A stretch of DNA of 64,000 nt. It comes from a candidate division FCPU426 bacterium. Its GTDB lineage: Bacteria > Oederibacteriota > JAAXVQ01 > JAUVAV01. This document shows, one piece after another, positions 28,995-64,000 of this stretch. The stretch covers positions 360,907 through 424,906 of the forward strand of contig JBFLYH010000003.1 in NCBI GenBank assembly GCA_040756875.1. The letters are read 5' to 3'. How positions within the stretch are numbered: position 1 is the first letter of the stretch; each line of letters begins with the position of its first letter. The notes under the pieces were generated by a model. That model was not told the origin of the DNA. It worked only from the letters and a program-made list of their open reading frames with translations, and made no database searches. The translations under genes were made by a program, and so were the position numbers.

Positions 28995-31900
28995 TTACGC
29001 CGCAGCTCCGGTCCGCAGGATCTTGCGCCGCACCGGCGGCAACGGCTTGCCCTGGGTGTCGAAGACATCCAGGAAGAACAGCAGATCGTCGCGCAGGTGG
29101 GTGTTGTAAATGCTGGCCGGCAGCGTGGTCTGGATGACTTTCCCGGAATCCAGCAGGACCTGCACAGGGAATTGCTGGAACGGCTCGATGCGGGTCATGA
29201 CTTGGAACAGGCTTTCCTGGTACGCCTCGAAATCAGCCACGTCCCGCCGGCTCACTTCACGCATCAGCAGGGTGACGACGCGCTGCAGGTTATACGGCGT
29301 GATATCGCGCTCCAGGCGGTCCAGGGCCCGCTGCAGCAACAGGCTGAAGCGCCGGTCCTTGATGGCAACCGCCACCTGGGCCAGACGCGCCGCTGAAGCC
29401 TCGGGATTTTTCAGCAGTTGTTGCTGCTCGGCCCGCAGTTGGGCCAGTTCCTGCTTGGCTTGATCCGCCGAGCGGGTCAGGTTGGCCTTAAGGCCGGGAT
29501 GGGCGCCTTCCAGCTGGTTGAAGTGGCGCTGCAGGGTGGTGGCCGGCGCGAAGTAGAACATGACCGATTGCAGCTGGTCGGATTCGGAAAGCAGAGCGAA
29601 CAACTCGGGATAAAGCGGCACCAGGTTTTGAATCCGCACCAGGTTCATCAGCAGTTTGAACACGCTGTGATTGGACAAAAACCGGTTAAACCGCACGAAC
29701 TGGCTTAAGCTGTATTTGAGGGAAACAGGCACCTCTCCGGGCTGCAAGGTTTCCAACACCCGCTGTTTTTCGATCAATCCCTGCAAATCCTGAATTTGCT
29801 GCCGAAGCAAGGGCGACAGGGATTCCATGGCCCGCCGTTCCCCGAACACCACGCGCACCATCAACTGCAGGGATTTCACGAAATCAGGATGGGTGATCAC
29901 GCGGAAAAGCGGCAGCCTGCGGCCTTGGCGGTCGCGGGTTCTGGCCACCTGGGCCAGCGTATCCATGACCAGCGACCCGGCCGCGAAACCCAGCAGCAGC
30001 GCCGAGACCACTTTGGCCATGCCCCGCTTCTGTTCGTGGGCGGTGACTTTCATCTCAGGGCTCCACGCCTCCACGTTCATGCGCGGCTGCGACACCATGC
30101 GCCCCCGCTTGAAGCGATAGAAAACATCCGAAGCGAACAAAGACGGCGGCTCGGCCACTTCCTGGCCGCGCAAACGCAGCAGGCGGTTGGCCAGGGCTTT
30201 ATCGCTGATGACCGTGGTCACGGCATCCAGGCCCAACAGCGCCTCGGCTTGGGCATTCAGCTGGCGGTCGGACAAGCCTTGCGCCGCTTGTTCGCCGAGC
30301 TGTTCCATCACGAATGATCTGGCCTCCTGCTGCCATTGCGTCAATGCCTCGCTCTCCAGGCCCAACTCCTCCTGCAGATCGTCCCGTTCCACGGCACTGG
30401 CTACGGATGAGGTTTCCAAGGTGTCGGCGTTGAACAAGGACTGCATGAACAGCGAGTTGAAATCGTATCCTGCCAGCGAAGCCAGCGCCACTTCGCTCAA
30501 ACCGAACAACAACACGCCCTGGGCTCCGGTCCTGGCGGCGCGCTCAAGGGCGCGATATGCGGACTGGTTGAAGTCCACCACCACGCGTTCCGCGCCCTGG
30601 GCCAAGGCCGGTTGGGCCGCGGTCCGCAAGGCCGTCAAGGGCAGCTGGATGCCGGTTTGCGAGGCGGCCTGAAAGCCGACGACCGAGGTCAAAAGGTTGT
30701 TGACCTGGCCGGGCGTGCTTTGCAGCTGCTGCACGGTGGCCGCGCTGACCAGCAAATACCCTTCCAATTCGGTCTGATTGCGCATTTGCGAAAGCAGCCG
30801 TTGGTGGTCGGCCAGCAGCGCGTCCCATCCCGCTTTGCCGGCAAAGGCTTTCTGTGCTTCATCCATCTTTATGGCCGGCACTTTCACGCCGACTGTCGCT
30901 TCCCCGTTCCGGCCTATCACGACGGTCAAAGGCGACAGGTTGCTGCCTGCCTCTGACAGCACGGCCAGGCTGTTGGGCGCGCGCCAGTCCGTCGGCGCCA
31001 GGCGCTGGCCGGTGGCCGGATCAACGGGAAAGAGCGTGGTCTGAATGCGGTCGGCCAGTCCCGTGCCCACGCCTGAAGCCCGCAGGCTTTCCAGCATGGC
31101 GTCGATCCTGGCTTTCAATTGCGGGTTGTCCAATCCCAGGGTGACCGTCTGCCCGTCCGGCAATGTGTTCAACACCTGCGCGGCTTGTCCGAGGATGTAG
31201 AGCGCCCGTTGTTCTGATAGCAATTGCTCCTTGGCCGACCCGGGCATGGCCAACCCGCCCAGCAAAGGAACAAAGTAGGATCTGCCACCGGGCACATAAG
31301 GCTGGGTTTCGGATGGACCGATGCCCGTGGGACTCAGCGTCAGTTGGCCGTCTTCAGTCAGTCCAGCAACCATCCGGGCGGCTTGGGCAACACTGCGTCC
31401 GGGCAATTCCTGGCCAGGGACGCTCTGGTTCAATCCCTGAGTGTTGACTGCGTTCGTCCCGGTATTGACGGTGGTCTGCGCGTTCTGCGCGCCGAGTGAC
31501 AATACGGGAACCAGGTTGGATTGTCCCGGCAGTCGCACCTCGGCAGGCAAAGCGAACGCGCCCGGCGGAGGCACGCCGTCCGCGGGATAGCGGGGCAAGC
31601 CGGTGAGATCGGTATCCACCAGCCCGGCAGTCTCGGCCGCCATGACGCCCGTGGCGAAGTCGTTGGACGCAACCGGCGCTTCCGAGGTAACGGCAGAAGC
31701 CGGCAGCTGGGAGAACGAAACCAATTGGGTTTCCTGGTCCTCCTTGCGGCCCGCTTCGACCATGTCCTCGTTTTTATCCATCATGGTTTGGACGAATCTG
31801 CTGGTCGACAATGTTTGGTCAGCCTCTTGCCGTGTCCTTCGCTTGGCTTCGGAACCATCCTCGCCGAGGCGTGCTGGCTGTACGGGCGCCGAGGCGACTG

Positions 31901-34900
31901 TTTCGCTCGTGAGCGAAAGCTGTATGACGGGCTGATCCAGTTCATGTTCAAGTAAGGATCGCAACGTCGGACGTTTGGCCGCCTTGGGTTCTTCGGCGCT
32001 GACCGCAGCAATATCGACAAGCGGCATGGTTTGGGCTTGAACAGCGGCAATGCTTTTCGTGCTTTTTTCAGCCGTCAGGTGAATGAGCGGCGGCATTTCG
32101 GCGGCCGCTTCTTCGGTTGCCGGGCCTGCTAGCGGTTGCACCGGGGTTTCGCGAACCGTCACTTCAGTATCCAAATCCGTCCTCAGTTGCTTGGGTTGGT
32201 TGAGGCGGTCGATCAGACTTTTAGCCAAGAGCGCCGGGCCGGACCATAGCCACGCGTTTTGGCGGACAAAATCCATGACGCCGATCGAAATATCCTGGAC
32301 CAGTCCCGCCACGGTTGCCAGCATGAAGCGGCTGGAATTGGCGTGCTGCATGGTGAACCGCAGTATCTTGTTCTCGTTGTCAAATTGTTTGAGAAGATTG
32401 AGGTAATCGTTGAAGAATTTATATTCCGCATCCGTGAGCTTGGGATCGCCGAATGCGGAAATATAGACGTGATCACGCTCGGCGGCATCCAGATCCGCTT
32501 CCAGCTGTTGCATTTGCTGCTGTGTTACACCTTGCATCAAGGCTTGCGTCCCCAAATTGCCTTTGGCGCGCGCGCCCTCCAGCACGATCATTTGGTCGAT
32601 GTTGATGGGAAAACCCAGCCGTTCCCTTAAAAGCTGATTATAAATCTGGATTTTCAGGAAATTCTCATACATATACATGCTAAAGCGGTCACAGAATGTT
32701 TCCAAAGCAATAAGAATATTGATGCTGTCTTTGGTTTCTGCGCTGGCTGGTTTGTCGGACACTTTGACCAAGGCCTTGTAAATGTTCTTTATAAATACCA
32801 CACTGGTTTGAAGGCGGGGGTCGCTGTTGATCAACCGCAAATAGCTTTCCAGATTTATCGCGCGGAGATGGTCCTGTTCATCCACAGTCAGGTTGGCGGG
32901 AATTTCATCCGGCATATGCAGCACCAAGGCATGAACGGCCTCGTGCAGAAAAGCCAGGCTGATCCAGGCTTGCAGGGTTTGGAAATCCTTGGGAGCGGTC
33001 TTCTTCTGCCATTGCTGGGCGGCGAACTTCAGCAGTTGTTCAAAGGCGGGGGCGTTTTCCTCGGCCCGGGCCAGATAATCGGGCAAGGAATCGCGCAGGA
33101 TCTGGTACAAAGCATCCGGCCGCAATCCGTTCAATACAGCTTCGATATAGCGCGCCGGGATTTCTTTGTAGGGCATCTTCACATCCATCAATACGATCCG
33201 GAAAACCATGGTGGCCATTTCATTCTGATTGCGCGGCAGTCGGAACAAAGGCTCGCTGGCGATCGGGGCCGGTTGCACGTAAATTTGCTTCGGATCCTCG
33301 TTCACCTCTTCGTCCTTGGTGAACCAATCCACCAGCACCTGGTCGCTGAAACGGCGGAGTCCGTTGGCCTCCAGCAGCTGAAGCCAGGTCTCCACCATGT
33401 CCTCGGAAACGATTTCGAACGCGCCCGGCACGGGCCGTTTTTGATCTCCCTCGATAAGATCTCCGAATTTTTGTTTGATCCGTTGGGTGATGGCCCGCGT
33501 GCTTTCCTGGGCCCTGAGCATGGCGAAATCTGTCCCAAACTGGGCCTGCGTGGTTTTTTCCTGGCGTATCTCCCGGCGTCCCATTAACTTGGTCATCTGG
33601 GTGATGCCAAACACCCCGCCCATGGTCGTGCTGCCGAACAGGGTTTGCGCGTTCTGCATCATGTTCGCCGCAACAGCAGGGTCGTGCGTTTGGGGCATGA
33701 ACGGCAACACTTGCACCACCTGGTCCACCGCTGCCGTCAATCCTTGCAGATGCACCGCCAGGCCGGTCCGCACGGACAAAGACACGACGATGTCGGACAA
33801 GAGCGGCATAGCCAGGATGGGGATGGCCACCGCAGCAATGGCCAGGACCCCCAAAATCACGTTGCGCTTGGTGAAGAGCCGCTGGCCGAAATCCCCGGTG
33901 GCGTTCGTGGTCACCCACCAGGCGGCCAAAAGCATCAGGCTGCCGGTTGCCACCAGCAGAGCCGGAACCGCACTCGCGGTAAATCCAAGCAGAGGCAGGA
34001 CGATCCCCGCCAAGAGCCCGCCGGAAAGCAGCCACAAGGCGGAAATCCGCAGTTGGGTGGAATTGATGGCCGTCGGCCGCGCCGCATACGCCTCTACTTC
34101 CGTGCGGGAGAGAACCTGCAGGCCCTGGCGGTTGAATTGCAGGCCCATGATCGTCGATTGATCGTTCGCGCTGATCCTGACCAGGCGGTCCCGTAGGCGT
34201 TCCAGGGTCAAACCAGGCAGGCGGAGATAGGAACTGTTGCCGAGCCGTTGCAAGCCGTTCTCAATGAACCCGACCGCCCGTTGAAATTGCAGGCGGAAAG
34301 CCGGCAGCGTGAGGAAGTTGCGCACCGCCATGGCCGCCGGGCCGGCTGTTTGTTTGGCCAACAACTGCTCGAATTCGGTCGGCCTTTCCGGCGCCCGCAA
34401 CAGTTCGAAATAATTGGCCGAAGACTCGGCGCGGTCCATGGCCGGCCGCAGCACCACATAGGCCTGCCCGGCCTGCCGCGCCAAATCACGGATGGCTTCG
34501 GTATGATACCCGCCGGTGATCAATACGGCCCGTTTCTCTCCGCGATCCCTGAGTCGCTGCCAGGCATTCCGGAACAGCGCTGCGTCGCGCTGTGCGGCCA
34601 GGTCGTAAAATTTCATGGCCTGCTGCAGCAGCGCCGGCAGGGTATCTAGGTCGCGGGCCAACGTGGGGTTGTCGGCCACGAGCGCCTGCAAGCCGGCAAC
34701 ATTCACTTCCCGGCTCAGCGCCTGATACCGGTCCAGGTCTTCGCGGGAGGCGGACACGTTCAGGATGCGTTCAGCCAGTTCCACCCACTCCTGGTACTGC
34801 AGCAATTGACTCTCACCAGGCGTCCTTATAAGCCGGGCGCGCAATTGCGCTTCCAAATGCTGCACCTGGAGGTTGCGGGAATAGTAATCCCGTTCGACCT

Positions 34901-35827: not shown

Positions 35828-38800
35828 TCAGGCAGCGCTATCAACTGCCCTACGTTGTCTAGGTTGTGGTGCTTCCCAGATTTGGTTATCTATTTTAATG
35901 ACTGGGAATATCCGTTTAAAGCGAATTAAAAGATTTGGCTTTTCAAGTACAGCCATGGGTAACTGCCGGGAGAACTGACTGCCATCTGCCATTTGCAGGG
36001 TCACGTTTTTCTGGTTTGACGGCAGGCTAGATAAAATATCCAATACCGCTTCTCTGGCCACCGGGTCGTCTTTAACTTCATTTAATACTCCCAATAACTC
36101 TTGCAGCAATAGCGAAACCTGAACCGAATCCCGTGAACGGTTCAGTGCCAAGACGATCTGTTCCAGCCAGGCGCTGCGGGCAATCGCCCGGGAGGCAGGC
36201 GTGGCAGCCATGGTCCGCAAACGGTATTGGAACGCAAACCCCGGCGCCAACACCGTCAAACCGGTCAGCACAAAACTCGCGGCCATATTCACTCCGGCGC
36301 CGTTAACCAGGGCCAGGCTGATTCCGGCCCAGGCGGCCAAACTCAAGCCGATGACCGCGGCCCTGCCCCAGAAATTGTTTTGAGGCCTGGGAAGCAGGAG
36401 CATGAGCTTGAGTCCGGCTGGCAGGCCGCGCATTTGAATAATAGCCCGCCCCAGTCCGCTTTCCACAAAGCGCAGTCTTAAACGCTGCCAAACCGTGGTT
36501 CCGGGCTGCGCCGTTACACCCAGGTTCTGGTCCTGGCGCACGGTGGCAATGATTTCCTGCAGCGGCTGCGCCTCGGCCGTTGTGCCTGCTGCTGTTTCGG
36601 CGTCTGCCGGCTCAGCGGCCCGTGGAGCCAGCACACCGCGGAACCCGGCCACGCTCAGACCGGCCAGGGCAAACACCGCACCCAAAGCCACGGGCACGGC
36701 TGCCGGCAGGGCGACGAAGAAACTCGCGGCCAACAACAATCCCGAAGTTAAAAAGACGCCACTCAATACAACCGCATCCCAACGCGGCCCGGTCCGTAAA
36801 CGGGCAAACGCCATGGGGGCGGTCAAGGTGTCCAGCGTATGGGTTAAAAATTCCGCCAGACCCGCAACCAAGGCATAGCGGAACGTGCCTGTTGGCATGG
36901 ACGCCATGTTGATCCCGAACACGCGCAGGAGGCGCTGCGCCGCGGCATGTGAAAATCCTTCATGCCAGGCAATCGGCCAGTCCGCTTCGCCCAACACGGC
37001 GCCGGTCTGGGGGTCCACCATCTTCTCGATTTTCGGATCATAGGCTCCGACCGGTTCGCCCACGTGGCGCAGCAGGCCCGGGAATCCGTACTTGGCCCGC
37101 AACAACCGGAATGCGGTTGCCAGCTTGGCCGAAGGATAGAGCAACCCGAGCCCCAGGGACGGCAGCAGGGGCAGCCCCAGACCCAGGCTCAAAATCCCGA
37201 TCCAGACCGCGGCCACGACCAAGGTGTTCCGCAGGCTTAATGCCTGGTAATCGCCGTTTTTCCTCCCCAAGACCGCCTGGCGCACGATTCCGCGGCTCAT
37301 GATCGTGTCCGCGATCATCTGCTCGATCATGCGGACCGTGCGGCTGGCGCTTTTTTGCGTCTCCGGAGAAATGATGAGCGCGTCCGTGGGCACGGGCATT
37401 CTCGACTGGGGTTCCGTGGATTTACGGTCTTTGGCTGTCAGGTCAAAATAAACCCGGATGTCCGTCCGTTTAACGTATTGCTCGGGCGTTTGCCCCACCA
37501 CGATGACCCGGCCTTTTTGGGCTGAGTTTTGGACCAGCCGGCTGACCAGGGTATCCAGCAATTGCCGCTGATCCCTGAAGATTTTCGCGCCCACGGTCAA
37601 CTCCGAGGATTCCGTGGTTTCGCCCGCCAGTTCGTTGCGGTTAAAAGCCATGGTTTCCTTGGCCGCGCCTTTACGGTTGTAGTCGGCGGTCAGACCTTCG
37701 GCCGTTAACCGGAACTTGGCCCGTTTGACAAATTCCTCGAAGCTGTCCGCCTTGCCGGCTGCGAGAAACTTCTCATACACCGAAACGATTCCCCGATAAA
37801 CCAACCCGACATCGATGACCCGGTAACTGAGGCTCTGAGCCAGTTTCCAGGCAGCCTCGATCTTGCCCGTACCCGAGGGCCCACCCATGGTAATGATCCA
37901 ATCGACCGCCTTGATGACGTCCTGTTTGACCAGGGTATAGCCCGGACGGGTGGCGCTCTCATCGAGGAAATTAGGCAGGATTTTAATCTCAGCGCCGAAC
38001 GCCATGGGATCAACCGGCGCGATTTTAATTTTAACGTCGAAATAGCCGTCGGTTATTTGCTCGATTTTTATGCGCCCGTCTGCGCCCTGGGTGATGCTGA
38101 CGTTGACCCCGGCGGCTTTTTGGCCGTCAACGACCTTGATGCGGTAGCCGTGCGCTTCCAAATAGGGTATCAGCTGATTGACCGCTTTCTCAATCTGGTC
38201 CACATGAGGAATGACCAATAGGGTCCCTACGACGTCGTCCACGATTTTCTTGACGTTTCGTTCGTTGTATATGTCGGTGTCGCTGAAATCCGGCTTGGCT
38301 GGCATGGCCTTATTCCAATACCGCAGGAAATTCATGAGGATAGAGAAGGGTTCCTTGACTCGGCCCGGAGCGACCAGCATGTCCAAATCCACCTGGTCCG
38401 CAAAGCTGCGCAAGTCTTCGCGCAAGCGTTCCATTTCTTTTTCCCGTCTGGCGGGATCGATCAACCGCCGGAGGCGGGCCATGGCCGGACGAAGCTCGGG
38501 ATGGCGGTCCAGATATTGATCGACCATCCCGCCGCCGTGCCGCTGTTCCCACAGGAGAGTGATTTCCCAGAACTTCCGCTCCGCATCAGGCAGGGCGTAG
38601 TGCCCCATTTGCCGCATCTCTTCAATGACTTGCCGTGCGTTCAGGAAAATGACCCCCAGATAATCGAAATCCATATCCTCGAGCGCTTCCTGGTTGTCGT
38701 GATACAACTGGCGCAAGGCGTCGATAGCCGCCAATTTGTCGTCGCTTTCGCTTGCCAGGCGCTGGGCCGTATTCACAAACCAGCGTTGGAAAATTTGGTC

Positions 38801-41800
38801 GTTGCGTATATTGAAATTCAGCAGACTCCATTCCGGCGAAATGAATTCCTTGGCTTCCTGCGCTTGGCCGTTGGCTTCCTGTTCCAGGTTGACGGCAAAA
38901 ACGATTTCGCCGCCCAAGGGGCGGGCGAAAGCCGCTAGCGCATCCGTGGCTGCTTTTTCCAGAACCCTAAACAAGTCCCGGCCCGGCATCTGGGAGCGGA
39001 CTTCGCCCTGGCGGGTCGGCACTTGGGCCAGGGCCTTATCATAGGCTTCGGCGCCGGCCACGCCCATGGAAAGCTTGGGTACGTACAAATAACCCGCATG
39101 CAGTCCGATTTTGGATTCAACTTCAAAGGGCATGGCAGCCAGCGTGTCAGCCGAGGTGCCCGAAGGCTGCAGGATGCCGGCCACTTCCAGAGCATGCTGC
39201 AGGTCTTTCTGGGCCGATATTTCATAAACAACGTGCACTTGCCGGCCTTCGGTAATCCCCACGGCGCCGTGCCCGAATTCCCTGACCGCGTTGCGCAACT
39301 GGCTGAGACGAATGTTGAAATCCCGCTCCGAGATGGTCCGGGCCTGGTTGTCGAGGTCGAAATACTGCAGGGTGACCACCCGGTAACGGCGGTTGAAGCT
39401 ATAGAATAAATAGGATTGAACGTCCTGCAGCAACCGGCTGAATTCTTTGTCGTTTCTCAGCTTGGTCGCAATGGCAAACCGGGCGGAAGTGTTTTCCGGC
39501 CGGAAGAAGAAAATATTTCTGCCCAAATATCCTTGCAGAATTTGCAAGGTTTTTTCATAAATGAACTCCGCGATATCCTGGCCGTAAATATCCTTCAAAT
39601 CGGAGAAAGAATCGATCTCCGCCACGGCCAGGGCCGCCGGTTCTCCGTCGGATAACAGTTTCTCCACCCGGCGCTGGCCGGAAACGCGCTGCGGAATTTT
39701 ATACCTGTCCCGGACAATGGTATCCTTGCCCAAACCGCCGACCATACCCGCGGCCAGGATGAATTGTCCACCGGCTGGTTGCTGGTTCAAGAGGGCGTAG
39801 ATCCCGATGGCGGCCAGGAGGATGATCATCGGGTTGCCGCGGACGAAATCAACCGCGCGCTGCAGATGCCGGCGCAGCACCGGCCAGGCGGTTTCCCGCA
39901 GGGCGGCCACGCGCAGGCGCAGTTTCTGGAACGCGCTCAAGAAGGCGGCTGCACCGGCCAGCAGCCCTACGCCCAGCAGGACGGCTCCAGCGCCAAACAG
40001 GGCCGCGGTCCCGGCGCCGAGAAAAACGGCGGTGTAGATGAGGTATCCCAGTCCAACGGCCAGGAACGAACCGCCGGCCAAGCCCATCACCAGCGATAAG
40101 GAAGCGGTGCCGCGCTCTCCCAAACGCGGGGTCCTGCCTTCGGGCTGGCTGGCCGTTTGCGCGACCGAGGCGATTTCAGCATCGCGTTTTTCTTTGGTCT
40201 GAAGCAACCGGTTCCAGAAATAAGCCAGCGTGGTCTCCAGCGGCCGGTCTTTGAAGAATTCTCCGCTGAGCGTGGTCAAAACATGTTCCTCGGCGCTGCG
40301 AAGCACGAAGAGGCGCTCAGCCTCGGTCAAACCGAATTGATCCATTACCGTGGACAGTTCCGGCAACACCTCGGAGTAGCGGTCCGCCAGCCAGGCAATG
40401 ATCATGGCCCGGGTCAGCCGCAGCATGCGCTGAGACCGCCAAGGGGACCCCAGGGAATACAAGGCTTGCATTAAATCATTCACAAAAGCACCGTGCGGCC
40501 CGCGCCAGGCCAGACGCCGCTCCAGGAAATCCCGGATCTCGTCCGGCGTCCCGTCCAGCGGGCTGGCCACCGGCGCAGCCCGCGCCGGGCGGGCCTGGAA
40601 TTCGTCGGCCCGCAGGATTCTGACCCGGGCCAGCAAGGCGCGGGTGGCGGCCATGGCATTGAGCGGCTGGTTCAAGGCGCGACGAACGGATACGCCCCAC
40701 AGCGGCGAGCGAACGGAACCGACATTGAAGCCTGAATCCGCCACTAAAGGCAGGTCATTGTCGAAAATCGAGCCCACCGAATCACCGGCTAAAAACAGCT
40801 CAGTGGTGTCAATACCCAGGTCCGCGGCCATATCTTCCGCGGCCCGGCGTTTGGTGACGTCCCACGGATAAATCCGCAGGTCCTTGCCTTCGACATACAT
40901 TGCATACTGCCGCTGCAACCGGGGAAACTGCCGGGTGATGAACCGCGCCAATTCGAAGGCCTTGTCCCGGCTTCTGCAGCTGACGTTGAAGTATCCCTGC
41001 CCCTCGGAAACTTTCTTGTCGGGATAGCTCGCCAGCAGCTGTTCAAGCAAGTTGATGTCGCCGGGTTGAAGCGTGCGCCGATAGGCCGCGTCTTCGACCG
41101 GCTGGCCGGACCGCACCTGCCATTTGGTCGCGCCGTTTTCCCCGTAGATCCGCAGGCGCTCCAAGTCCTGTTCCGTGGCGCCGTAGGCCTGCAATTGCTT
41201 GATGGTCTTGGCCATGGAGGAGGCGGTCATGATCCGACCCGTGGCCAATCCCACATACTTGCCTTCTTGCAGGGCCTGGGCAATGTCTTTTTCCTCCATC
41301 GTCCCGGTCCAGTCTGTCAGCATGCCCTTGTAGGTCTGACCCAGCCTCTCCTCCCACATTTTTCTTTCGACTTCGGGAAGTAGCGCCAAAAGTTTGGAGG
41401 TAGGCAGCAATTCCGTGCGACCGTCGCGCTCGTCCACTGCCACGGGTGCGCCCCGCTGGGTAAGCAGCACGGCGGTCATGGCATCAAAGAAGATGTTCAA
41501 AACCTGGGCCGGGCTCAAATTCAGGTCAGGACGGATTGGATCCAGCGCCGGCACGGCTTCCGCTTCCCGGGTTGGCTGTTGCCGCCTCAATTTGCCGAAT
41601 AATTCCTGCACGCGGGCGTAGAAGGTCTTGTTTGCAAACGCGTAGAAATCCTCGAAGTATCCGGGCCGGTGGTCTTTGCGACCCATTTCCGGCGCATCCA
41701 TGGCCATGAATTTCCTGAGCCACAGGGGAATACTGGCGTTGTTGACCGTGGCGTTGATCAGGATGATTTCCCTCTGCCCCGGCCGTTCCCGGAAGTTCTC

Positions 41801-54469: not shown

Positions 54470-57043
54470 TCAGTCCAATTTCAGCTTTATACTGACCTCC
54501 GGAAATTCCAGACGATCCGGCATGAGCAGGGAAATATTCTTCTTCAACCGGTTGATCAGCAGCATGTTGCCGGTGCTGCTGGTGATGCTTCCCGCGGCAT
54601 CCAGACGTAAAACGCATTGCGCTCGTGCTTGCGCAAAAACCAGCTCCACACCTTTATTCCCGTTTGGATACTTGTATGTCGCCGTCTCCCCGGAAGGAAA
54701 CTGCAAGCCTGTTCTTCGTCCCACCTGGTCATACTCTTTGATAAGTTGCAATTGGCCCTTTTCGTCCAAATATCGGACTTGGGTCTGGTTTTGCGTGCGG
54801 TTGAAAAGCAGGCGTTTTCCATCGGGAAGCGTCATTGCTTCGACCCGGCCTTGCGATAAATGCCACGTCTGACTGCGGCCGCGATACTGTATTTCCAATT
54901 TGGTTCTTTCGGGAGAAACGTCCACAACCTTGCCGGCTTCCCCCCGGGCAGTGTTCCAGCTTTGCAATCGGCCGTCCGGGCCGTACGTTTCGGTCTGCAC
55001 GACTGCTTCGTGCAGACGCCAAACCCGGCGGTACCCCATGGGGCGCCCCAGCCAGGTTTGCTGATAAAGGGTGCCGCGATATCCTCCGGGGCCCGGCCAG
55101 TTTTTAATCTCTTTTTCGGCCTTACCACCCGCCAGCATCCGTCCCAAGACCGTGCGCCAGACGGTTGATACTGCCCTGGCCCCCGCGGTAGCACCCGCCG
55201 GCACCACCGTGGCGGGGGAGACAGCCTGTTCTGGCCGGAGATCGTTCTTTTGATCCCAATTCTGCATCCCAAGAATGCTCCCGCTCACACGCCGGGATTT
55301 GTCCAAAGACTGAAGTTTCCAGTGGAACCGCCCCTCGTCCACCCGCAATTGCCAGGCGCCGTCTTTTTCCATCAGTTCGTCCCTGCCTGGGCGCAAGGCA
55401 TAAGGCATCCAATATCCTTTTTCCGGGTGATCGGAATCGGACTGCCAGATCCGAAGACCCCTTCCGCCGCGCTCCACGCGGCTAATCCAGGTGTAGGTTT
55501 TTTCCTTGTCCACTTCCGGTAAAAACACTTCTATATCCGAATACAACCATTGTTCCACTTCCCGGTTGCGCAACCGGCGCAGCCGCCCCAGCTGGCCGGC
55601 CAGAGAGGAGAGGGACAGCATGCGCTCGGGCGACAGCGAGCGTAATAAAAGGTCGAATTGCGGATGCTGGTCGCTGTCCCGCTGAGCCATTTGCGGGCTG
55701 AGCAGGAGGTCGCGCTTGACCTGATAGGTTATCGCCAACTGCAGCAGGCGCGCCTGTTCGGGTTCAAGGCGGAGCACGGATTCGCCCTCCCGAAGCGGGG
55801 TCGGCAAAGGTGTCAGCGTGCTCTCGGCCGCGGCTTGCAGCAGGCGGTGCAAGTCGTCGAAATCCGGTTCGTCGTTCTGGTGCTGGGACAACCTCAATTT
55901 TTCATTCTCCAGCGCCTCATCCGGAATCAAAAGCCTGGCCGAAAAATCAAACCGGTCCATCTTCTCGGGGTCCGCCCTCCAAAAAGTTCGCGCATATCTG
56001 GATTTGACCGTTGCATCGCCCCTCATGTTTAAGGGGACGAGTTCCTCTTCCTCCGGATCGAAGGGATAGCGCTCCCAGCGCCTCCTCTCCGGAACCCACA
56101 TCATGACTCGATCCCCCTCGATTTTGACCTTTTGCACCAAAACATTTTCTTCTTCCACCATGTCCACCCAGGGCAGCGACATTTCAATATCCGTGCAATC
56201 GATGAATTTCCACTCCTCGTCGAAAACCACCCGCCGTTCTTCGCTGTCCGCGATGAATCGCCGCAATGGATAAAAGACTTCGGGGCGAAGGTATTTAAGA
56301 ATGACGTCGCCCCGGGTCTGCCCATAGCTGTCGGTCTTCAAGCGCCGGCGGTCCGAGTATTCCTGCCTGACCTTCTCCTGCAAAAGCCGCGAAATCAGGG
56401 CATACCGCTCATCCCAGACGGTTGTCATTCCCCCTGAAACCCGCCAATGTTCGAGCGGCAACCCGCTGGTGGTATTGACTTTGAAATAATCCGTCAAACC
56501 GTCCCGCGAGCGCGTTTCCAGGTAGCTATAGGTGCGCCGGTTTTCGCCCCAGCTGAAATCGCAGCGGTAGCACAATCCGTCCGGCCCCTGTTGGATTTCA
56601 AACAGGACATTGCCCTCGTCGTCGTAGTAACTGGCGGTCACTTGCTTGCCGAAAAACCGGAGCGCCCGCTTGATGCGTCCTTGGGAGGTAAAAAGATACT
56701 CCGTCCGGTCAACAAGCTCCCCGGAGGCGGAATAATGCCGCACGGGATAACCCTGCGCGTATTGGATCAGGCTGCCGTCCGGCAGCAACTTCTTCAGCAG
56801 GCGGCCGCTGTCGTCATACGTCAGCGTTTGACCGTTGGCAAGGGTGAACGTCACCTGCCAACCGCCGGGGGACTGGTCAAACTGATAGTTTCTTATGGCA
56901 TAACGGTCTTTTAGGCAATTGTACATTTGTTCGGCAAGCTGCTGAGGCGGCACTTCAGCCCCCAGGCTGCCCCGCGTAGCTGCCAGTAACACCACGCCTG
57001 CAATCAAGCGGAACCGGACGGAACGCGAAACCGGGCGGGTCAT
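54470..57043 (-). CDS. Secreted 857-aa protein with YD/RHS-like repeats at both ends
   Basis: Signal-like N-terminus, TYDDSGRLLKKLLPDGS, YYDDEGN, TYGPDGRLQS, TLPDGK, EYDQVGRRTGLQFPSGETATYKY. Confidence 0.7.
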   Translation of the reverse strand: MTRPVSRSVRFRLIAGVVLLAATRGSLGAEVPPQQLAEQMYNCLKDRYAIRNYQFDQSPGGWQVTFTLANGQTLTYDDSGRLLKKLLPDGSLIQYAQGYPVRHYSASGELVDRTEYLFTSQGRIKRALRFFGKQVTASYYDDEGNVLFEIQQGPDGLCYRCDFSWGENRRTYSYLETRSRDGLTDYFKVNTTSGLPLEHWRVSGGMTTVWDERYALISRLLQEKVRQEYSDRRRLKTDSYGQTRGDVILKYLRPEVFYPLRRFIADSEERRVVFDEEWKFIDCTDIEMSLPWVDMVEEENVLVQKVKIEGDRVMMWVPERRRWERYPFDPEEEELVPLNMRGDATVKSRYARTFWRADPEKMDRFDFSARLLIPDEALENEKLRLSQHQNDEPDFDDLHRLLQAAAESTLTPLPTPLREGESVLRLEPEQARLLQLAITYQVKRDLLLSPQMAQRDSDQHPQFDLLLRSLSPERMLSLSSLAGQLGRLRRLRNREVEQWLYSDIEVFLPEVDKEKTYTWISRVERGGRGLRIWQSDSDHPEKGYWMPYALRPGRDELMEKDGAWQLRVDEGRFHWKLQSLDKSRRVSGSILGMQNWDQKNDLRPEQAVSPATVVPAGATAGARAVSTVWRTVLGRMLAGGKAEKEIKNWPGPGGYRGTLYQQTWLGRPMGYRRVWRLHEAVVQTETYGPDGRLQSWNTARGEAGKVVDVSPERTKLEIQYRGRSQTWHLSQGRVEAMTLPDGKRLLFNRTQNQTQVRYLDEKGQLQLIKEYDQVGRRTGLQFPSGETATYKYPNGNKGVELVFAQARAQCVLRLDAAGSITSSTGNMLLINRLKKNISLLMPDRLEFPEVSIKLKLD

Positions 57044-57729
57044 GGCTGGTCGTCCGGTTGTACGAGCAGATCCACGGGGATGATCTGTTCCAGGTCATCG
57101 GGACCGCCGGAGCTCTGAGTTGACCAGGGAGTCCCATCGGCGTGATATCCGGCGAGCAGTCTCCCCCGGGAGTTGAACAGCAGTATGCGATTTTGGATTT
57201 TATCCGTCACGGAAACGTACAGGGCCGGAACATCGTTATCCGGCGTTTGGGTTTTAACGGCCAGCAGCCCTAGGGCATGGAAGACTTGGAGTGTTCCGTC
57301 CTTTTGCAGCCGTGCCTGCAGCCGCCCGCGCCAATAATATCTTTCCTCCAACAGCTGGTTGTCGGCTCCGGTTTCCCAAACCGTGGCGCTGGATCCATCC
57401 GTTCCATAACGCCACTGCTCTTCGGAACCGTCCGCGCGCCGTTTGGCGACCATCCGGCCTCTGGCGTCGTACTCGGCGCGGGCGTTGACCGAAAGAAACA
57501 ACCGGCGGGTCTGGCGAAAAACATCGGCCTCCTGCGCCAGTCTCTCCCGGCTGAAATGCCGCTGTTCGAGCCACGATGCGCCCCAATCCTCGGATTCGGC
57601 TTCCGAGGGCAAGGCTGCTCCGGGCAGTAATGCCGCCCCTCCCGCGAGGATGAACAAGGTCAAACAAACCGCCGACTTGCGCACGCCGCACACCCCTTTG
57701 GCCGACTCCGACGCATCAGTATAACCCAT
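57040..57729 (-). CDS. Secreted ~215-229-aa protein with YD/RHS-like repeats
   Basis: Hydrophobic N-terminal stretch, EYDARGRMVAKRRADGSEEQWRYGTDG and FNSRGRLLAGYHADGT. ATGA overlap with the downstream gene. The start may be a downstream GTG (VRKSAV). Confidence 0.65.
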   Translation of the reverse strand: MGYTDASESAKGVCGVRKSAVCLTLFILAGGAALLPGAALPSEAESEDWGASWLEQRHFSRERLAQEADVFRQTRRLFLSVNARAEYDARGRMVAKRRADGSEEQWRYGTDGSSATVWETGADNQLLEERYYWRGRLQARLQKDGTLQVFHALGLLAVKTQTPDNDVPALYVSVTDKIQNRILLFNSRGRLLAGYHADGTPWSTQSSGGPDDLEQIIPVDLLVQPDDQP

Positions 57730-57772
57730 TTGGAGGGCCGGGGAAAGCCTCTCGATCCTCGCGGTTTCTCCT

Positions 57773-57813
57773 AAAAAATAAAAAACCCGGCGCCAACCGC
57801 GGCGCCGGGTTTT
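57773..57813 (-). terminator. Intrinsic terminator after the 53-aa-repeat protein gene
   Basis: Stem aaaacccggcgcc / ggcgccgggtttt followed on the minus strand by TTATTTTT. Confidence 0.85.
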
Positions 57814-57827
57814 CCGATCATTCTCCG

Positions 57828-60800: not shown

Positions 60801-63800
60801 GGCCGCCTCGGTCACGAGCGTTCCTCCCGGACCGCTCAGGGTCCGGGAAGTGGAACGGATGGTCATGCCCGTCTCCTCGTCCGCCTCCATGCTGGTTTCC
60901 TGATAGCGTCCCTGGTCAGGCCCGTGTTTGGCCCAGCCGGTGCTGCTGCGCGCAAATCCGTTTTCGTCCATGAGGGTGTGCACTTCGCCCGCATGCAGGC
61001 CATCGGTGGTGAAAGTTTCCCGCGTCAACCCGGTTCCCGGATCCGGAATCATGCGAGTATGCTTGAGACGGCCGGCGCGGGGGCCGTGCAGATCCCGCCC
61101 CTCGCTTTCCCGGACGATTCCGTTCCCGTCCATCCGGGTCACAGCCGGCCCGTCGTGCAAACCGTCGCGGGTGGAAACCTCGCGGGTCACTCCTGTATAG
61201 CGGTCGGCGGTTATTTGGCTGTTTTTTTCGCGCCCGTTTTCCGGTCCCAGGCGTTCAAGGCTGCGGCTGCTGACCGGCAGCCCGTTCTCGTCCATGGTCG
61301 TCCAGGTTTCCTCCTGCAAGTCGTTCTTGGAATAGGTGGCCGCGATTTCGCCGGTCCGCGCGTCGGTGGTGACACGGCCGGCACTGTGGCGCTTTTTACG
61401 GGCGCCCAGCGTGGTCCAGCTTTCGCTGAAAACCGCCAACCCGTTTGCGTCCATCTCCGTGATCGTGCGCTCCCCTAAATCGTTGGTGCTGACGGTGGAG
61501 GAGATTTCACCCGTATCGGCTGTGTGGATCTCCGAAACCGTGTGTCGTTTGGCCGTCGGACCCAGGCTGAGCCAGGATTCGCTGCGCACCGGAGTTCCAT
61601 CACGGTCCATTTGCGTGACCGTGCGGTCGCCCAGTTGGTTGATGCTGTTGGTGGCGGCCGTTTCTCCGGTTGTCCGGTCGGTGTCAATCCGCGTCTCCAC
61701 CAGCCGTTTATATATCGCACCTAAAGACAGTCGACTGAGGCTCAGGGTGGCCAGGCCGTCCTGATCCATGATCGTATAAGTCATGTCCTGGCGGTCGTTG
61801 AGGCTCAAGGTGGACGTGGTTTCTCCGGTGGCGGGATCGGTGCTGATGTCGGTCAGGCTGTGCTTCTTCAATTCCGCTCCCAGCGCCAGGTGGCTGTCGC
61901 TTTGAACGGCCAGCCCGTTGCGGTCCATCAGCGTCAGGATCAGGTCCCCGCGGTCATTGCGGTCCAGGGTCGCCGTGGTTTCGCCCGTATCAGGATGGGT
62001 CGCAATGGATGTCGCGTGGTGGCGTTTGGCTTTCGGCCCCAACGCAAGCCAGCTTTCGCTCCCAGCCGCCAGGCCCTGTTCATTCATTTGCGTCATCGTC
62101 CGGTCGCCGCGGTCGTTGGTCGTATCCGTCGCCCGGGTCTCCCCGGTCTCCGGGTCCGTTTGAATGGCGGACACGCTGTGCCGCTTCGCCCGGGCACCCA
62201 GGGCCTGCCAGGATTCGCTGCGCACCGCCAGACCGTTCCCGTCCATCCCCGTCCACACCTTGTCCCCGCGGTCGTTCACGTTCAACGTCTCCGACGTCTC
62301 CCCCGTCTCGCGGTTGTTCGTGATCGTGGTCACGCTGTTCCGCTTCCGCACCGCCCCCAGCGCGTTCTGCGTCACGCTCCGCACTGCCAGACCGTCCTCG
62401 TCCATCGCCGTCCACACCTTGTCCCCGCGGTCGTTCAGGCTATACGTCTTCTCCGTTTCCCCCGTGTTCCGGTCCGTTGTGATCTCCGTCAGACTGTGCC
62501 GCTTCAGCACCGCCCCCAGCGCCGACTCCGTCTCGCTCCGCACCGCCAGACCGTCCTCGTCCATCGCCGTCCACACCTTGTCCCCGCGGTCGTTCAGGCT
62601 GTACGTCTTCCGCGTCTCTCCCGTGTCCGCGTCCGTCGTGATCTCGATCACGCTGTGCCGCTTCTGCCTCGCCCCCAAAGCCAGCCAGTTCTCTCCCGCC
62701 ACCGCCAGTCCGTTCCGGTCCATCACCGTCAGCGTCCGGTCCCCGCGGTCGTTTACGTTCCGCGTCGACGATGTCTCCCCCGTGTACCGGTCCGTGCGGA
62801 TCTCCGTCAGACTGTGCCGCTTCAGCAGCGCACCCACCTTCTGCCACGTCTCGCTCGCCATCGCCAGCCCGTCACGGTCCATCCCCGACCAGGTCCGGTC
62901 CCCACGGTCGTTCACGCTCACCGTTTCCGCCGTCTCCCCCGTCTCCTGGTTCGTCTTGATCTCCGTGACGCTCCGCCGTTTCAGCACCGCCCCCAGCGAC
63001 AGCGTGCCCACGCTGTCCGTCGCCAGCCCGTTCTCGTCCATCGCCGTGGCCGTGAAGTCCCCGCGGTCGTTCATGCTGCTCGTCGCCGCCGTCTCCCCCG
63101 TCTCCGCGTCCGTCTCGATCGCCGTCAGGCTGTTGCGCTTCAGCGTCGCCCCTAGCGCCGCCAGCGACCGGCTCTTCACCGCCAGCCCGTCCTCGTCCAT
63201 CGCCGTCCACGCCATGTCTCCGCGCTCGTTCAGGTTGCACGTCATCGCCGTCTCGCCCGTGTACGCGTCCGTCTGGATCAGCGTCGTGCTCCCGCGCTTC
63301 TGCAGCGCCCCCAGCGCCATCCGGCTCTTGCTGCTTACCGCCAGCCCGTTTTCGTCCATCACCGTCAGCGTCTCGTCCCCCCGGTCGTTCTGATCCGCGG
63401 TCTCGGCGGTTTCCCCGGTGTTCGGATCGGTCGTGATCCGGGTGATATGGTGCTTCTTTTGCCCGGCGCCCAGGGCGCGCCAGTTTTCGCTGCCCACAGC
63501 CAGGCCGTTCCTGTCCATGTTCGTGGCGCTCCGGTCGCCCAAATCATTCACCATGCTGGTCGCCCGGGTTTCGCCGGTCTCCGTATCCGTATTGATCGCC
63601 GTGACGGCATGCCGTTTTTTTCCGGCGCCCAGAGCCTGCCAGGATTCGCTGCGCACCGCCAGACCGTTCCCGTCCATCCCTGTCCACACCCGGTCTCCGC
63701 GGTCGTTCACGTTCAACGTCTCGGACGTTTCCCCCGTCTCGCGGTTGTTCGTGATCGTGGTCACGCTGTTCCGCTTCCGCACCGCCCCTAGCGCCGACTC

Positions 63801-64000
63801 CGTCTCGCTCCGCACCGCCAGACCGTCCTCGTCCATCACCGTCCACACCTTGTCCCCGCGGTCGTTCAGGCTGTACGTCTTCTCCGTTTCCCCCGTGTTC
63901 CGGTCCGTTGTGATCTCCGTCAGACTGTGCCGCTTCAGCACCGCCCCCAGCGCCGACTCCGTCTCGCTCCGCACCGCCAGACCGTCCTCGTCCATCGCCG
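57828..64000 (-). CDS. Very large repeat protein (>2055 aa, 5' end outside window): ~20 copies of a 53-aa repeat grading into YD/RHS-like repeats, then a unique region and a final YD block
   Basis: The frame is open to the window edge. The ORF-track Met at 63995 is the first residue of a repeat unit, not a start. Consensus MDxxGLAVxSExxxALGAxxKRHSxTxIxTDxxTGETxxTxSxNDRGDxxxTx. Confidence 0.85.
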   Translation of the reverse strand, partial: AMDEDGLAVRSETESALGAVLKRHSLTEITTDRNTGETEKTYSLNDRGDKVWTVMDEDGLAVRSETESALGAVRKRNSVTTITNNRETGETSETLNVNDRGDRVWTGMDGNGLAVRSESWQALGAGKKRHAVTAINTDTETGETRATSMVNDLGDRSATNMDRNGLAVGSENWRALGAGQKKHHITRITTDPNTGETAETADQNDRGDETLTVMDENGLAVSSKSRMALGALQKRGSTTLIQTDAYTGETAMTCNLNERGDMAWTAMDEDGLAVKSRSLAALGATLKRNSLTAIETDAETGETAATSSMNDRGDFTATAMDENGLATDSVGTLSLGAVLKRRSVTEIKTNQETGETAETVSVNDRGDRTWSGMDRDGLAMASETWQKVGALLKRHSLTEIRTDRYTGETSSTRNVNDRGDRTLTVMDRNGLAVAGENWLALGARQKRHSVIEITTDADTGETRKTYSLNDRGDKVWTAMDEDGLAVRSETESALGAVLKRHSLTEITTDRNTGETEKTYSLNDRGDKVWTAMDEDGLAVRSVTQNALGAVRKRNSVTTITNNRETGETSETLNVNDRGDKVWTGMDGNGLAVRSESWQALGARAKRHSVSAIQTDPETGETRATDTTNDRGDRTMTQMNEQGLAAGSESWLALGPKAKRHHATSIATHPDTGETTATLDRNDRGDLILTLMDRNGLAVQSDSHLALGAELKKHSLTDISTDPATGETTSTLSLNDRQDMTYTIMDQDGLATLSLSRLSLGAIYKRLVETRIDTDRTTGETAATNSINQLGDRTVTQMDRDGTPVRSESWLSLGPTAKRHTVSEIHTADTGEISSTVSTNDLGERTITEMDANGLAVFSESWTTLGARKKRHSAGRVTTDARTGEIAATYSKNDLQEETWTTMDENGLPVSSRSLERLGPENGREKNSQITADRYTGVTREVSTRDGLHDGPAVTRMDGNGIVRESEGRDLHGPRAGRLKHTRMIPDPGTGLTRETFTTDGLHAGEVHTLMDENGFARSSTGWAKHGPDQGRYQETSMEADEETGMTIRSTSRTLSGPGGTLVTEAATQNDPEYGTPVSSVALSSFGAYKEKQTAFVCDTNTGLIEASLVEDEGGTTRNQHNEYGITSSRRDNLLGAIRTITTTNTLDEQTGMPLQSASVDRKGQTTSQYNAEGLNTTATRANTGAHFIVTETTRVQTWNPYTGSPLYAIATDAHGKTHKYSDLDGFLEKAERVDEWGERTVTTYTNNRLTGMPTYSLSQAATGSTQTWYEDNGLALRSSFKATVGLHSETVNYYDAQMDISSAKSTDERGNVTVNAFNAAGEVTHSYSKNGTTVMDMANNRAASSSGPNGSTTYYYSGRWMDQTVNEGDEGTTTTWYDHRHNGAANKVQTKDGTTTYTNTYNSRGFVTYRTESNGKDSGFSRFNQYGDQEYTEWSGKIPADPPDKYGNQFLGGSWKSVTTYKHNDRGDMLSWTTDSSWSGTVHYAEIGHYIFKCTKGYDNSGACLGGEEQYVVDQAAHNKGVGGSESKTEGPKHAPESDDWILSHLQGTRPTGVALARSKTKSGGIVAASVKQRDATEADYHSVDQKRMASLLARQGYAEELKGQYAGVVQSLDDLLLHFSRTGEAMSLKRIASYQYADLATFDEELKRAKDKTEFLWQTVDGVYYYFSGAHLSEEQLTRSSLTRAYCLTDRAPSTAVLQDWIKFTLPAADQKTAGAMLSQAAHELKDLQDARLRARRMDILCETLAGLLSRQSRSKLGVYLSPAGVKEWLTGVLDSPKTVSDVSGMLASGQGGRTGARRAGEGVSLGGALETASASGKARQGWVINPERLGYIKPVGVAAASAQGTAAGAAAKSGETQSSGEAKPRDQRPSEAKNERGFDELVKTHRLSLRREQHTDDAGEKKLDREGRVVQTARSEGGTKTFAYPSGTKTVVKFITTDGRTESEARYEQGWLQSATFEDGSKLDVTYKWNANKQPETVDVRLVKKEEERIYKYDAHGRLLNVLAKDGGRMKVVSQSQEREPLEELSEAIKTQKEILQGKHFDDELIQEPPKVRE
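60850..64000 (-). repeat. Coding tandem array, 159-bp unit, with a 1431-bp (9-unit) higher-order duplication
   Basis: Unit starts (ATG) at 63995 and 63836 give a 159-bp period. The units starting at 63995 recur near-identically from 62564 (offset 1431 = 9x159). Confidence 0.9.

Follow-up and report, generated by a model that had tools for sequence, protein, structure and literature searches.

Two giant proteins encoded in a 64,000-nucleotide stretch of DNA from an uncultured groundwater bacterium of candidate division FCPU426 (GenBank GCA_040756875.1, contig JBFLYH010000003.1; positions 360907–424906 of contig C3 of its genome, G000; hereafter the window) belong to a very large and as yet unnamed family of giant proteins predicted to reside in the inner membrane. 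Each member is headed by a common N-terminal domain of ~440 residues (the N-domain) with a predicted TIKI/EreA-type fold, followed by a body that varies widely in length and combines transmembrane (TM) blocks with enzyme-like modules. The larger giant, P0002 (6130 residues), is accompanied by two smaller, apparently exported proteins with YD-type repeats, P0005 and P0004, which precede it in the same order in five related genera. As the best explanation of the whole, held tentatively, we propose that the giants are membrane-threaded arrays with a Sec-exported hydrolase head and that the YD pair is their exported partner scaffold. No description of a family with a TIKI/EreA-like head, a W-A-F-E motif, an …AA tail and a YD-pair partner was found in the literature, supplementary tables not being covered.

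Five co-oriented open reading frames (ORFs), all on the minus strand, as are the domains and modules located within them below and the ClpB and subtilase genes that follow P0001, occupy positions 28995–63998, and their translations bear out the coordinates and sizes in a first-pass annotation made from the sequence of the window. They encode P0001 (28995–35705), a 2236-residue giant of the N-domain family; P0002 (35828–54220), its 6130-residue relative and a predicted polytopic membrane protein; P0004 (54470–57043), a YD-type protein of 857 residues; P0005 (57040–57729), a YD-repeat protein of 229 residues; and P0003 (57828–63998, open at the window end at 64000), the C-terminal 2056 residues of a secreted protein of more than 3000. 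Gaps within the cluster are short, and the stop of P0005 overlaps the start of P0004 by 4 nucleotides (57040–57043).

The N-domain covers 52766–54148 in P0002 (residues ~25–485, delimited by an alignment of nine paralogues), where it follows a signal-anchor helix ending in AFAFE, and 34293–35654 in P0001 (residues ~18–471, delimited by BLASTP and alignment). These N-terminal ~470 residues are all that BLASTP finds in common between the two giants (30% identity, E 2e-43), so that the unrelated middles noticed at first reading stand, as does the N-terminal member of the constant ends then claimed. At the sequence level the domain matched nothing in Pfam at E ≤ 5, nothing in NCBIfam, no PDB sequence by profile at E ≤ 10, and none of the family models TraB_PrgY_gumN, Erythro_esterase and Cofac_haem_bdg. 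Its AlphaFold2 model (predicted local distance difference test, pLDDT, 77) has a parallel β-sheet core flanked by helices, like the solved members of the TIKI superfamily, with modest scores. Foldseek ranked EreC first (E 4.9e-3, probability 0.90), with Bcr135 also among the best matches, which spanned E 5e-3 to 6e-2. The five best of 48,161 chains compared with VIA-align were ChaN (Z 9.2), HopBA1 (9.0), EreC (8.8), 2qgm (8.6) and 2rad (8.5), all of the TIKI superfamily, with root-mean-square deviations (rmsd) of 3.8–6.1 Å over 166–188 aligned residues; PMT and RRSP scored Z 6.0.

Conservation within the domain is consistent with the same superfamily. Invariant in all nine paralogues are Q-D-L-H-C at residues 101–105 (53906–53920 in P0002), E-G at 132–133 and G-G-x-H at 417–420. 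D102, H104, E132 and H420 thereby form an acid-x-His…Glu…His set, each residue standing right after a predicted strand. In RRSP, E3900, H3902, E3930 and H4030 are the essential 2His/2Glu residues, and the TIKI superfamily, as listed in the same paper, comprises the proteins that the N-domain model matched (PMC6254334). Both the pattern and the 28-residue His-to-Glu spacing of the N-domain are those of RRSP, the first acid being Asp rather than Glu. Because the invariant residues reproduce this pattern, we read the N-domain as a TIKI/EreA-type hydrolase that is probably active. With the TIKI/TraB/PrgY/GumN–erythromycin esterase–ChaN superfamily it has in common the predicted fold, a candidate acid-x-His…Glu…His set and a position after a signal peptide, as in TIKI, ChaN and PrgY. 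It differs in that a helical insertion of ~210 residues separates the Glu from the second His, that the first His is followed by an invariant Cys, and that thousands of further residues are fused to it.

The ends of the family members are also conserved. At the N-terminus, basic residues precede a hydrophobic helix that ends in the strongly conserved motif P-x-[LFV]-x-W-[AS]-F-[EDQN]; because the helix looks like a Sec signal or anchor, the N-domain is probably extracytoplasmic. At the other end, P0002 finishes in …PRQRRAVDSAA-COOH (35831–35866) and P0001 in …RRKILRTGAAA-COOH (28998–29033), according to their translations, and the P0001 orthologue of a related genome, G007, in RRIELRHGASA. A basic cluster followed by …AA-COOH closes 7 of the 8 complete paralogues in G000 (the eighth ends in QAI) and five of the eight complete homologues taken from elsewhere. 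When the final 300 residues of P0001 and P0002 were compared as profiles, each built from three orthologues, they aligned in register at the end over 60 columns (probability 17%, E 0.0014). Since this alignment is not significant as a domain, the conserved C-terminal module of the first-pass annotation shrinks to at most a short tail motif. Tails of this basic…AA kind resemble the ssrA- and MuA-type ClpX tags and the signals of tail-specific proteases. The conserved terminal motifs hint that all members of the family share a handling step.

The family is large. By tblastn the N-domain heads at least 10 ORFs in G000, whose products measure 2236, 6130, >1103, 1223, 8793, 10037, 12493, 12403, 2611 and >4323 residues (two cut by contig ends), arithmetically ~61,000 residues or ~5.7% of the 3.22-Mb genome. 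Their middles differ and have little in common beyond the N-domain; some paralogues, P0001 and P0002 not included, possess a common C-terminal module of ~700 residues. Searched against 1.84 billion representative proteins, the N-domain profile returned 9,529 matches at E ≤ 1e-3, of which 5,817 reached E ≤ 1e-30. Among the 150 matches listed, all but one have the domain starting no later than residue 42, the exception starting at residue 91, and lengths run from 408 to 7768 residues, many cut by contig ends. Matches occur in 15 of 31 genomes (G000 and relatives), namely G000 itself, all 10 others of its family and all 4 of a sister family in the order, with 7–44 per genome; the 16 genomes representing the phylum's other families have none. 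Among named records, the closest are metagenome-assembled genomes (MAGs) labelled Candidatus Firestonebacteria and Goldiibacteriota; more distant homologues, at 22–32% identity, come from Omnitrophota, uncultured Planctomycetia and Endomicrobiaceae. Precomputed Pfam annotations of homologues of 841–2400 residues include glycosyltransferase, GH130, SIS, radical SAM, PPDK_N, class II aldolase, FBPase, alpha-amylase, M50, malate synthase, phosphorylase, Maf, APH, HD, rhomboid and methyltransferase domains.

In three loci, two from Omnitrophota MAGs and one from an uncultured Planctomycetia MAG (L070:6719–14062, L076:5756–13513 and L067:5704–14065), the N-domain is a stand-alone protein of 528–567 residues between two larger proteins. 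One of the flanking proteins has 1006–1341 residues, with a TPR start in two of the three loci, and the other 685–851; Pfam finds no domain but TPR in them, and the downstream proteins of two of the loci are unrelated.

The link between the YD pair and P0002 rests on gene order. In G001, G003, G004, G005 and G007, relatives representing five genera of the bacterial family, a P0004 orthologue (27–62% identity) lies directly upstream of the giant's N-domain and is preceded in turn by a P0005-like gene of 206–251 residues; all five related genera examined preserve the succession P0005, P0004, giant. A P0001 orthologue of 2196–2280 residues follows the giant, and a giant of another, unrelated type, g10, stands upstream, in G001, G003 and G007. 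Across the bacterial family the recurring core comprises, in order, a g10-type giant, P0005, P0004, a P0002-type giant and P0001, the full core having been read in three genera while the other two loci were cut or not read further. The upstream giants of G001, G003 and G007 were considered as P0003 orthologues, which comparison ruled out, as they are g10-like. No P0003-like gene occupies this position in those three genomes, the gene being found there only in G000. The expectation at first reading that the YD repeat genes would cluster with the giants in relatives was thus borne out for P0005 and P0004 and failed for P0003. A side observation concerns G005, where an opposite-strand ORF of 558 residues (G005:C98:11592–13268) interrupts the cluster, separating the P0005-like gene from the giant upstream of it.

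Following the contig past position 64000, as the first-pass annotation had proposed, led to a 100-N scaffold gap, which is the window end and falls within the 53-residue repeat array of P0003, and then to the start of P0003 and upstream giants. The P0003 frame goes on for 981 residues beyond the gap to a Met and signal peptide, with YD-like repeats and more 53-residue units, so the whole protein exceeds 3000 residues. Farther on, the end of contig C3 carries the C-terminal 1305 residues of a g10-type giant (C3:428000–431914, beyond the window), and the end of contig C2 carries the N-terminal part (C2:1120142–1134623; at least 4827 residues, 64% identical to the G001 protein). As each contig end holds part of one g10 gene, the two ends join, giving a g10 giant of at least 6132 residues; that of G001 has ~6687, with an N-terminal anchor and a Gln/Glu/Pro-rich region. 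In the G000 C-terminal part, the full G001 copy and the G007 upstream giant, Pfam gives only sub-threshold DUF3991 and CcdA matches. Just upstream of g10 on C2 lies a 6133-residue YD/53-residue-repeat giant, whose G001 equivalent has 6179 residues. The five genes thus make up the downstream portion of a longer co-oriented cluster, which spans at least 75 kb and at least seven genes and after the join reads 6133-residue YD giant, g10 giant, P0003, P0005, P0004, P0002 and P0001, followed by ClpB and an S8 subtilase.

Structural modelling bears on the YD pair itself. Modelled as a complex, P0004 (residues 30–857) and P0005 (60–229) scored 0.68 against 0.35 for the best control; in calibration 58 of the 80 solved complexes attained the score mark, as did 2 of the 110 mismatched pairs, counts that hold only roughly here, as our own alignments were used. 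The contacts of the three runs coincide to at least 76% with a partner pLDDT of at least 74, and in the modelled interface the P0005 sheet joins helix 433–473 and the C-terminal sheet of P0004. P0005 and P0004 are accordingly predicted to bind each other. Both have a signal-peptide-like start, judged by eye. Their YD identity is faint at the sequence level: RHS_repeat matches P0004 at E 0.0035 (18.1 bits, under the Pfam cut-off of 22) and the P0005-like protein of G007 at E 0.0011, and TIGR01643 YD_repeat matches P0005 at E 4.8e-4 (20.5 bits, over the cut-off of 15.8).

The AlphaFold2 model of P0004 (pLDDT 74) shows YD-type β-hairpin meanders at ~50–203 and ~642–825 with two long-hairpin or helical domains between them. 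Its top Foldseek match is the Rhs core 8qjd (E 8e-10), in a top list (probability 1.0 for Rhs cores and teneurin shells, TM-scores 0.07–0.14) of type VI secretion system (T6SS) Rhs cores, teneurin YD shells, RhsA, RhsP, Tse15 and Tse5, interleaved with endoplasmic reticulum membrane complex chains. VIA-align of residues 642–828 instead favours open sheets of a single layer, namely the CPAP G-box (Z 9.5), OspA (7.7) and MORN (7.6), with the Rhs core at Z 6.5 and an rmsd of 20.6 Å. Because Foldseek ranks Rhs cores and teneurin shells and VIA-align open sheets, we take the modelled repeats to be YD-type, with a better fit to open sheets than to a closed cage. An Atlas search placed P0004 with RHS_repeat clusters at 0.81 with a TM-score of about 0.2, as a lead only, and the repeats of P0004 and P0005 together are too few for a closed shell. 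The YD repeats first assigned to the small proteins are thus retained, at weak family-model scores; no Rhs core and no closed cage was found.

P0003 confirms the 53-residue repeat protein described at first reading: Tandem Repeats Finder reports a 159-nucleotide period in 11.7 copies at 62137–64000. The tandem repeats are followed by degenerate YD-like repeats and a non-repeat region ending in YD repeats, with no YD/RHS family match in Pfam at E ≤ 0.01. P0003 begins with a module similar to the N-terminal one of P0004 (E 2e-7), and is an extra, genome-specific member of the YD-giant family lying between g10 and P0005. None of P0003, P0004 and P0005 has an Rhs core, autoprotease or toxin domain (Pfam E ≤ 0.01; NCBIfam) or, by eye, a DPxGL-type motif outside the repeat unit.

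The body of P0002 carries a dozen or more hydrophobic membrane-spanning stretches by eye, spread along the chain, among them a multi-TM cassette present in two copies (42908–43402, residues ~3607–3771, and 39704–40237, residues ~4662–4839; 37% identity over 181 columns, E 5e-21). The only Pfam matches at standard thresholds are two Cytidylate_kin modules (PF02224). The first (46307–47059, residues 2388–2638), directly after a double hydrophobic stretch, scores E 1.2e-20 (74.6 bits against a cut-off of 26, over model positions 1–207 of 211) and matches cytidylate kinase (Cmk) structures in the PDB down to E 5.7e-9; because it lies well under the TIGR00017 equivalog cut-off (69.9 against 135.55), we call it Cmk-like and not a Cmk orthologue. 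Its P-loop, D-G-x-D-x-x-G-K-x-E, is invariant in all five orthologues, including the Lys. The second (37490–37894, residues ~5443–5577; E 8.5e-6, 26.1 bits against 26) represents the N-terminal half only, with the P-loop GPSGTGKI.

Other modules are weaker. A tentative GGDEF-like module (45341–46168, residues ~2685–2960) was picked out by eye from DIDGLSGYN…GGDEG; its D31, D33 and GGDE are invariant in all five orthologues, its own signature reading GGDEG, and its profile reached the solved diguanylate cyclase DgcB in the PDB only at E 0.52. RecA, the top match of this region, was rejected as an artefact on a multi-copy RecA chain. A second, weak GGDEF-like module (39443–39664, residues ~4853–4926) matches PF00990 at E 0.011 (15.9 bits, under the cut-off of 23.8), and NCBIfam gives a GGDEF match in P0002 at E 0.0066. 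With no PF00990 match above threshold joined to an intact GG(D/E)EF in P0002, the resemblance to diguanylate cyclases is at the level of the motif. A weak matrixin-like module (50846–51079, residues 1048–1125) contains HESGH and matches Peptidase_M10 at E 0.017, below the cut-off, and a HAD-like DxTGT…GDSxxxxxDND pattern is visible by eye only at ~4300–4560. Of the enzymes first listed for the middles, then, the kinase stands and GGDEF is weak; RelA/SpoT and HAD drop out, with no Pfam match at E ≤ 5 in either giant and none in NCBIfam for P0002, the giant scanned there.

P0001 is ordered as N-domain, TM block, HExxH-containing region, low-complexity region and a conserved C-terminal ~750 residues. 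Its HEAVH (32931–32945, residues 921–925) is HEFTH in the G003 orthologue, and residues 700–1170 fall with an Atlas cluster named 'putative Zinc-binding metallo-peptidase' at 0.83, a lead only; the protein has no Pfam match even at E ≤ 5 and no PDB sequence match at E ≤ 1. Orthologues have 2280 (G001), 2269 (G003) and 2196 (G007) residues, that of G003 being colinear over its full length at 41% identity. Residues 2101–3100 of P0002 are likewise colinear with orthologues wherever the giant is long, at 78%, 45%, 39% and 37% identity. Because both are colinear across genera, P0001 and the tested 1000-residue stretch of P0002 are vertically inherited rather than swapped as cassettes in the manner of polymorphic toxins. 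The first-pass view of the middles as exchangeable payloads thus fits the difference between paralogues and the many cytoplasmic-type enzyme domains of the wider family, and does not fit these stretches. Invariant middles among orthologues, which it had named as evidence against exchange, hold for P0001 (2196–2280 residues) and were ruled out for the P0002 lineage, where the syntenic giant has 6130 residues in G000, 5843 in G001, 5753 in G003, at least 3810 in G004 (contig end), ~3305 in G005 and ~2462 in G007. In the last of these, the search reports one in-frame TGA within the N-domain match (G007:C4:49341–50765), yet the ORF listing gives an open frame there, running from L092:19365 into L093:6753.

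We propose the following arrangement. The N-domain would be exported by Sec, placing a hydrolase, most likely a protease or esterase, outside the cytoplasm. Later hydrophobic blocks would thread the chain through the inner membrane, and because of this threading the enzyme-like modules would be held on both faces as a fixed array rather than released as cargo. P0005 and P0004 would be exported and form one open YD-type β-sheet scaffold, which would be dedicated to the P0002-type giant and act in the periplasm or on the cell surface. The many hydrophobic spans seen by eye in P0002 favour an enzyme array retained in the membrane over a delivered toxin.

Several observations weigh against this proposal. 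The spans were identified by eye only. The VIA-align Z of 8.5–9.2 for the N-domain is modest, a typical best Z without a clear match being 7–8, and the equivalence of D102, H104, E132 and H420 to the RRSP residues would follow from pattern and predicted strand positions rather than from superposition. The residue after the P-loop Lys of the first Cmk-like module varies across genera (T/Q/K/R), and nucleotide binding by this module may be non-catalytic; if the spans preceding it are even in number, an ATP-using fold would lie outside the cytoplasm, which our model leaves unexplained. Because most of both giants, and in P0001 everything after the N-domain, has no recognised domain, the term 'enzyme array' rests on few modules. 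The predicted TM-score (pTM) of the P0004 model is low (0.30), and its YD segments fit open single-layer sheets better than Rhs shells. Finally, a giant of the sister family (G014) with a matching middle has no P0004 neighbour.

An unlikely alternative, and the strongest of those we weighed, is the delivered effector system that the first-pass annotation had in mind. The constant ends would then serve export and processing, the middles would be cut out, perhaps by the TIKI-like domain or an HExxH module, and act in or on another cell, and the YD proteins would deliver or encapsulate them, as in Rhs, Tc and MARTX systems. Payload domains do vary greatly across the family and between paralogues, and the P0002-type giant ranges from ~2462 to 6130 residues between genera. 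The predicted N-domain fold is common to the effector domains RRSP, PMT and HopBA1, the HExxH modules could process the chain, and the tail conserved at the very C-terminus could signal export; the YD partners are conserved, and an exported S8 subtilase is a conserved neighbour. Giants of Omnitrophota have, moreover, been proposed to be cleaved by peptidases and to act on prey cell walls, according to one study (10.1101/2023.11.21.568195). Set against these points are the dozen or more spans seen by eye in P0002, duplicated multi-TM cassette included, and the colinearity of P0001 and much of P0002 at 41–78% identity. The constant module is N-terminal and enzyme-like, unlike that of polymorphic toxins, and the YD parts model as open sheets with no Rhs core in P0003, P0004 or P0005. 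The window ORF list contains no small immunity-like gene between the giants. The lack of a T6SS noted for the window extends, for one sheath and one spike family, to the genome, which is 100% complete: PF05943 (TssC/VipB) and PF05954 (VgrG) gave 0 matches with positive controls found, TcA not being among the searches. Taken together, the hydrophobic blocks, orthologue colinearity and absence of Rhs core, immunity genes and T6SS argue against classical polymorphic-toxin or MARTX-like delivery.

Somewhat less probable still is that the giants are envelope-spanning sensors or signallers, whose outer domains sense while cytoplasmic Cmk-like and GGDEF-like modules make or bind nucleotide messengers, the YD pair being an extracellular ligand-binding accessory. 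The order Cmk-like then GGDEF-like does recur, in P0002 orthologues and in several giants of the order. It is also found in a 1660-residue ORF (G007:C5:144690–146654; G009:C140:3955–5919), which pairs the modules as P0002 does at ~2370–3100, with 33–45% identity in pieces; because this ORF carries it, the cassette exists outside six-thousand-residue proteins. The DxD and GGDE residues are invariant in five of five orthologues, weak Pfam and NCBIfam GGDEF matches exist, and Omnitrophota giants are reported with GGDEF domains and neighbouring PilZ genes (10.1101/2023.11.21.568195). On the other side, GGDEF falls under every curated threshold and its PDB profile match is weak (E 0.52), P0001 has no such module, the family carries mostly metabolic rather than signalling domains, and no PilZ or receiver gene occurs among the 10 neighbours scanned beside the locus.

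The remaining alternative, equally doubtful, is that there is no system and that the YD proteins and giants are unrelated surface or envelope genes, co-located as large repetitive genes gather in one region: P0003 is not conserved at its position, the other two YD/53-residue-repeat giants of G000 are not beside N-domain giants (one adjoins the cluster only through the joined contigs), YD neighbours occur at only 2 of at least 10 N-domain giants, and G014 lacks P0004 at its syntenic giant, against which stand the P0005–P0004–giant order kept in five of five genera though identity falls to 27–46%, the 4-nucleotide overlap and the short gaps.

In descriptive terms, P0001 and P0002 fit the Omnitrophota type of giant membrane protein, a class rather than a homology family. 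According to two accounts, by West-Roberts et al. (2023) and Nielsen & Lui (2026), Omnitrophota giants reach several thousand to more than 10,000 residues and combine many TM helices with divergent GGDEF, HAD, methyltransferase and peptidase domains, C39 or S8 peptidases and SecA-like domains being recurrent (10.1101/2023.11.21.568195; 10.64898/2026.06.07.730766). These 'Archaeovorin'-type giants resemble ours in size, in their many TM helices and enzyme-like domains and in starting with a signal peptide, often accompanied there by a peptidase domain. In the parts of their descriptions available, neither a TIKI/EreA/ChaN-like domain nor a YD-pair partner is named, and P0001 and P0002 have no SecA, C39 or S8 domain in Pfam. 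The phylogenetic setting differs as well: in the three Omnitrophota/Planctomycetia loci the N-domain stands alone; the present host lies nearest Candidatus Firestonebacteria MAGs, and the family is expanded to 7–44 matches per genome.

Two better-known systems offer partial parallels. Like Rhs/YD proteins (T6SS Rhs effectors, TcB/TcC, teneurins), P0003–P0005 have YD-type hairpin repeats, and P0004 and P0005 are predicted to combine theirs, as TcB and TcC do; they differ in the absence of an Rhs core, autoprotease and C-terminal toxin, and the 53-residue unit of P0003 is far longer than a YD repeat. MARTX toxins are also very large, with modular, variable internal enzymes, and their RRSP effector has the predicted fold of the N-domain. 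MARTX proteins also have glycine-rich repeats, a cysteine protease domain and type I secretion, and lack internal TM blocks, none of which was found for P0001 or P0002.

Downstream of P0001 lies ClpB (26292–28871; 859 residues; Pfam AAA_2 1.7e-70, ClpB_D2-small 4.5e-25), so that the giants stand directly upstream of clpB as first annotated; by length it is the sole ~860-residue protein of its kind in G000. An ORF of 862–864 residues, assigned by position and length only, holds this place in G001 and G007. In G003 the gene after the P0001 orthologue is instead an S8 subtilase, with no ClpB between, 56% identical to the exported S8 subtilase with an Ig-like C-terminal domain that follows ClpB in the window (24685–26292; Peptidase_S8 3.5e-57), and ORFs of subtilase-like length also follow in G001 and G007. 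ClpB is a frequent, not universal, downstream neighbour. Within the window, an exported S8 subtilase with an Ig-like C-terminus is twice followed by a ~320-residue protein that has no Pfam match (24685–26292 with 23702–24688, and 18703–20352 with 17750–18706); the first of these pairs is conserved beside the giant cluster of G003, and G001 and G007 have ORFs of corresponding length. The GC content drops to 0.48 at 14001–16000, against surroundings of about 0.60–0.65; within this stretch lie a 349-residue ORF unmatched in Pfam and a portion of a PD40-repeat protein. A search of sequencing runs for this DNA brought up a single one, a groundwater metagenome that may be the sample of origin, and no RNA data set.

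Beyond the proposal of membrane-threaded arrays, a more speculative idea, to which we give little weight, joins the two conserved ends. The W-A-F-E-tipped signal helix with its TIKI-like hydrolase and the basic …Ala-Ala-COOH tail could mark a previously unrecognised handling pathway for giants. The tail would be read only after the full chain of 2,000–12,500 residues is complete, for example by an AAA+ machine or a tail-specific protease. Outside the membrane, the N-terminal hydrolase would next process the chain or anchor it. Almost any enzyme module between the ends would be carried to the envelope, and the P0005–P0004 sheet would act as an extracytoplasmic receiver for the P0002 lineage. 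If true, this would be a new targeting or processing logic for thousands of genes in Firestonebacteria-like bacteria, Goldbacteria, Elusimicrobia and Omnitrophota.

Giant mosaic membrane proteins make up several percent of some uncultured bacterial genomes, ~5.7% in the present one. The N-domain provides a family-defining handle for them, outside any Pfam or NCBIfam model, with a predicted TIKI/EreA-type fold and four invariant candidate catalytic residues. This domain, the terminal motifs and the P0005–P0004 pair are small enough to express, mutate and assay, and the giant-protein problem could in this way become experimentally approachable without cultivating the organism.

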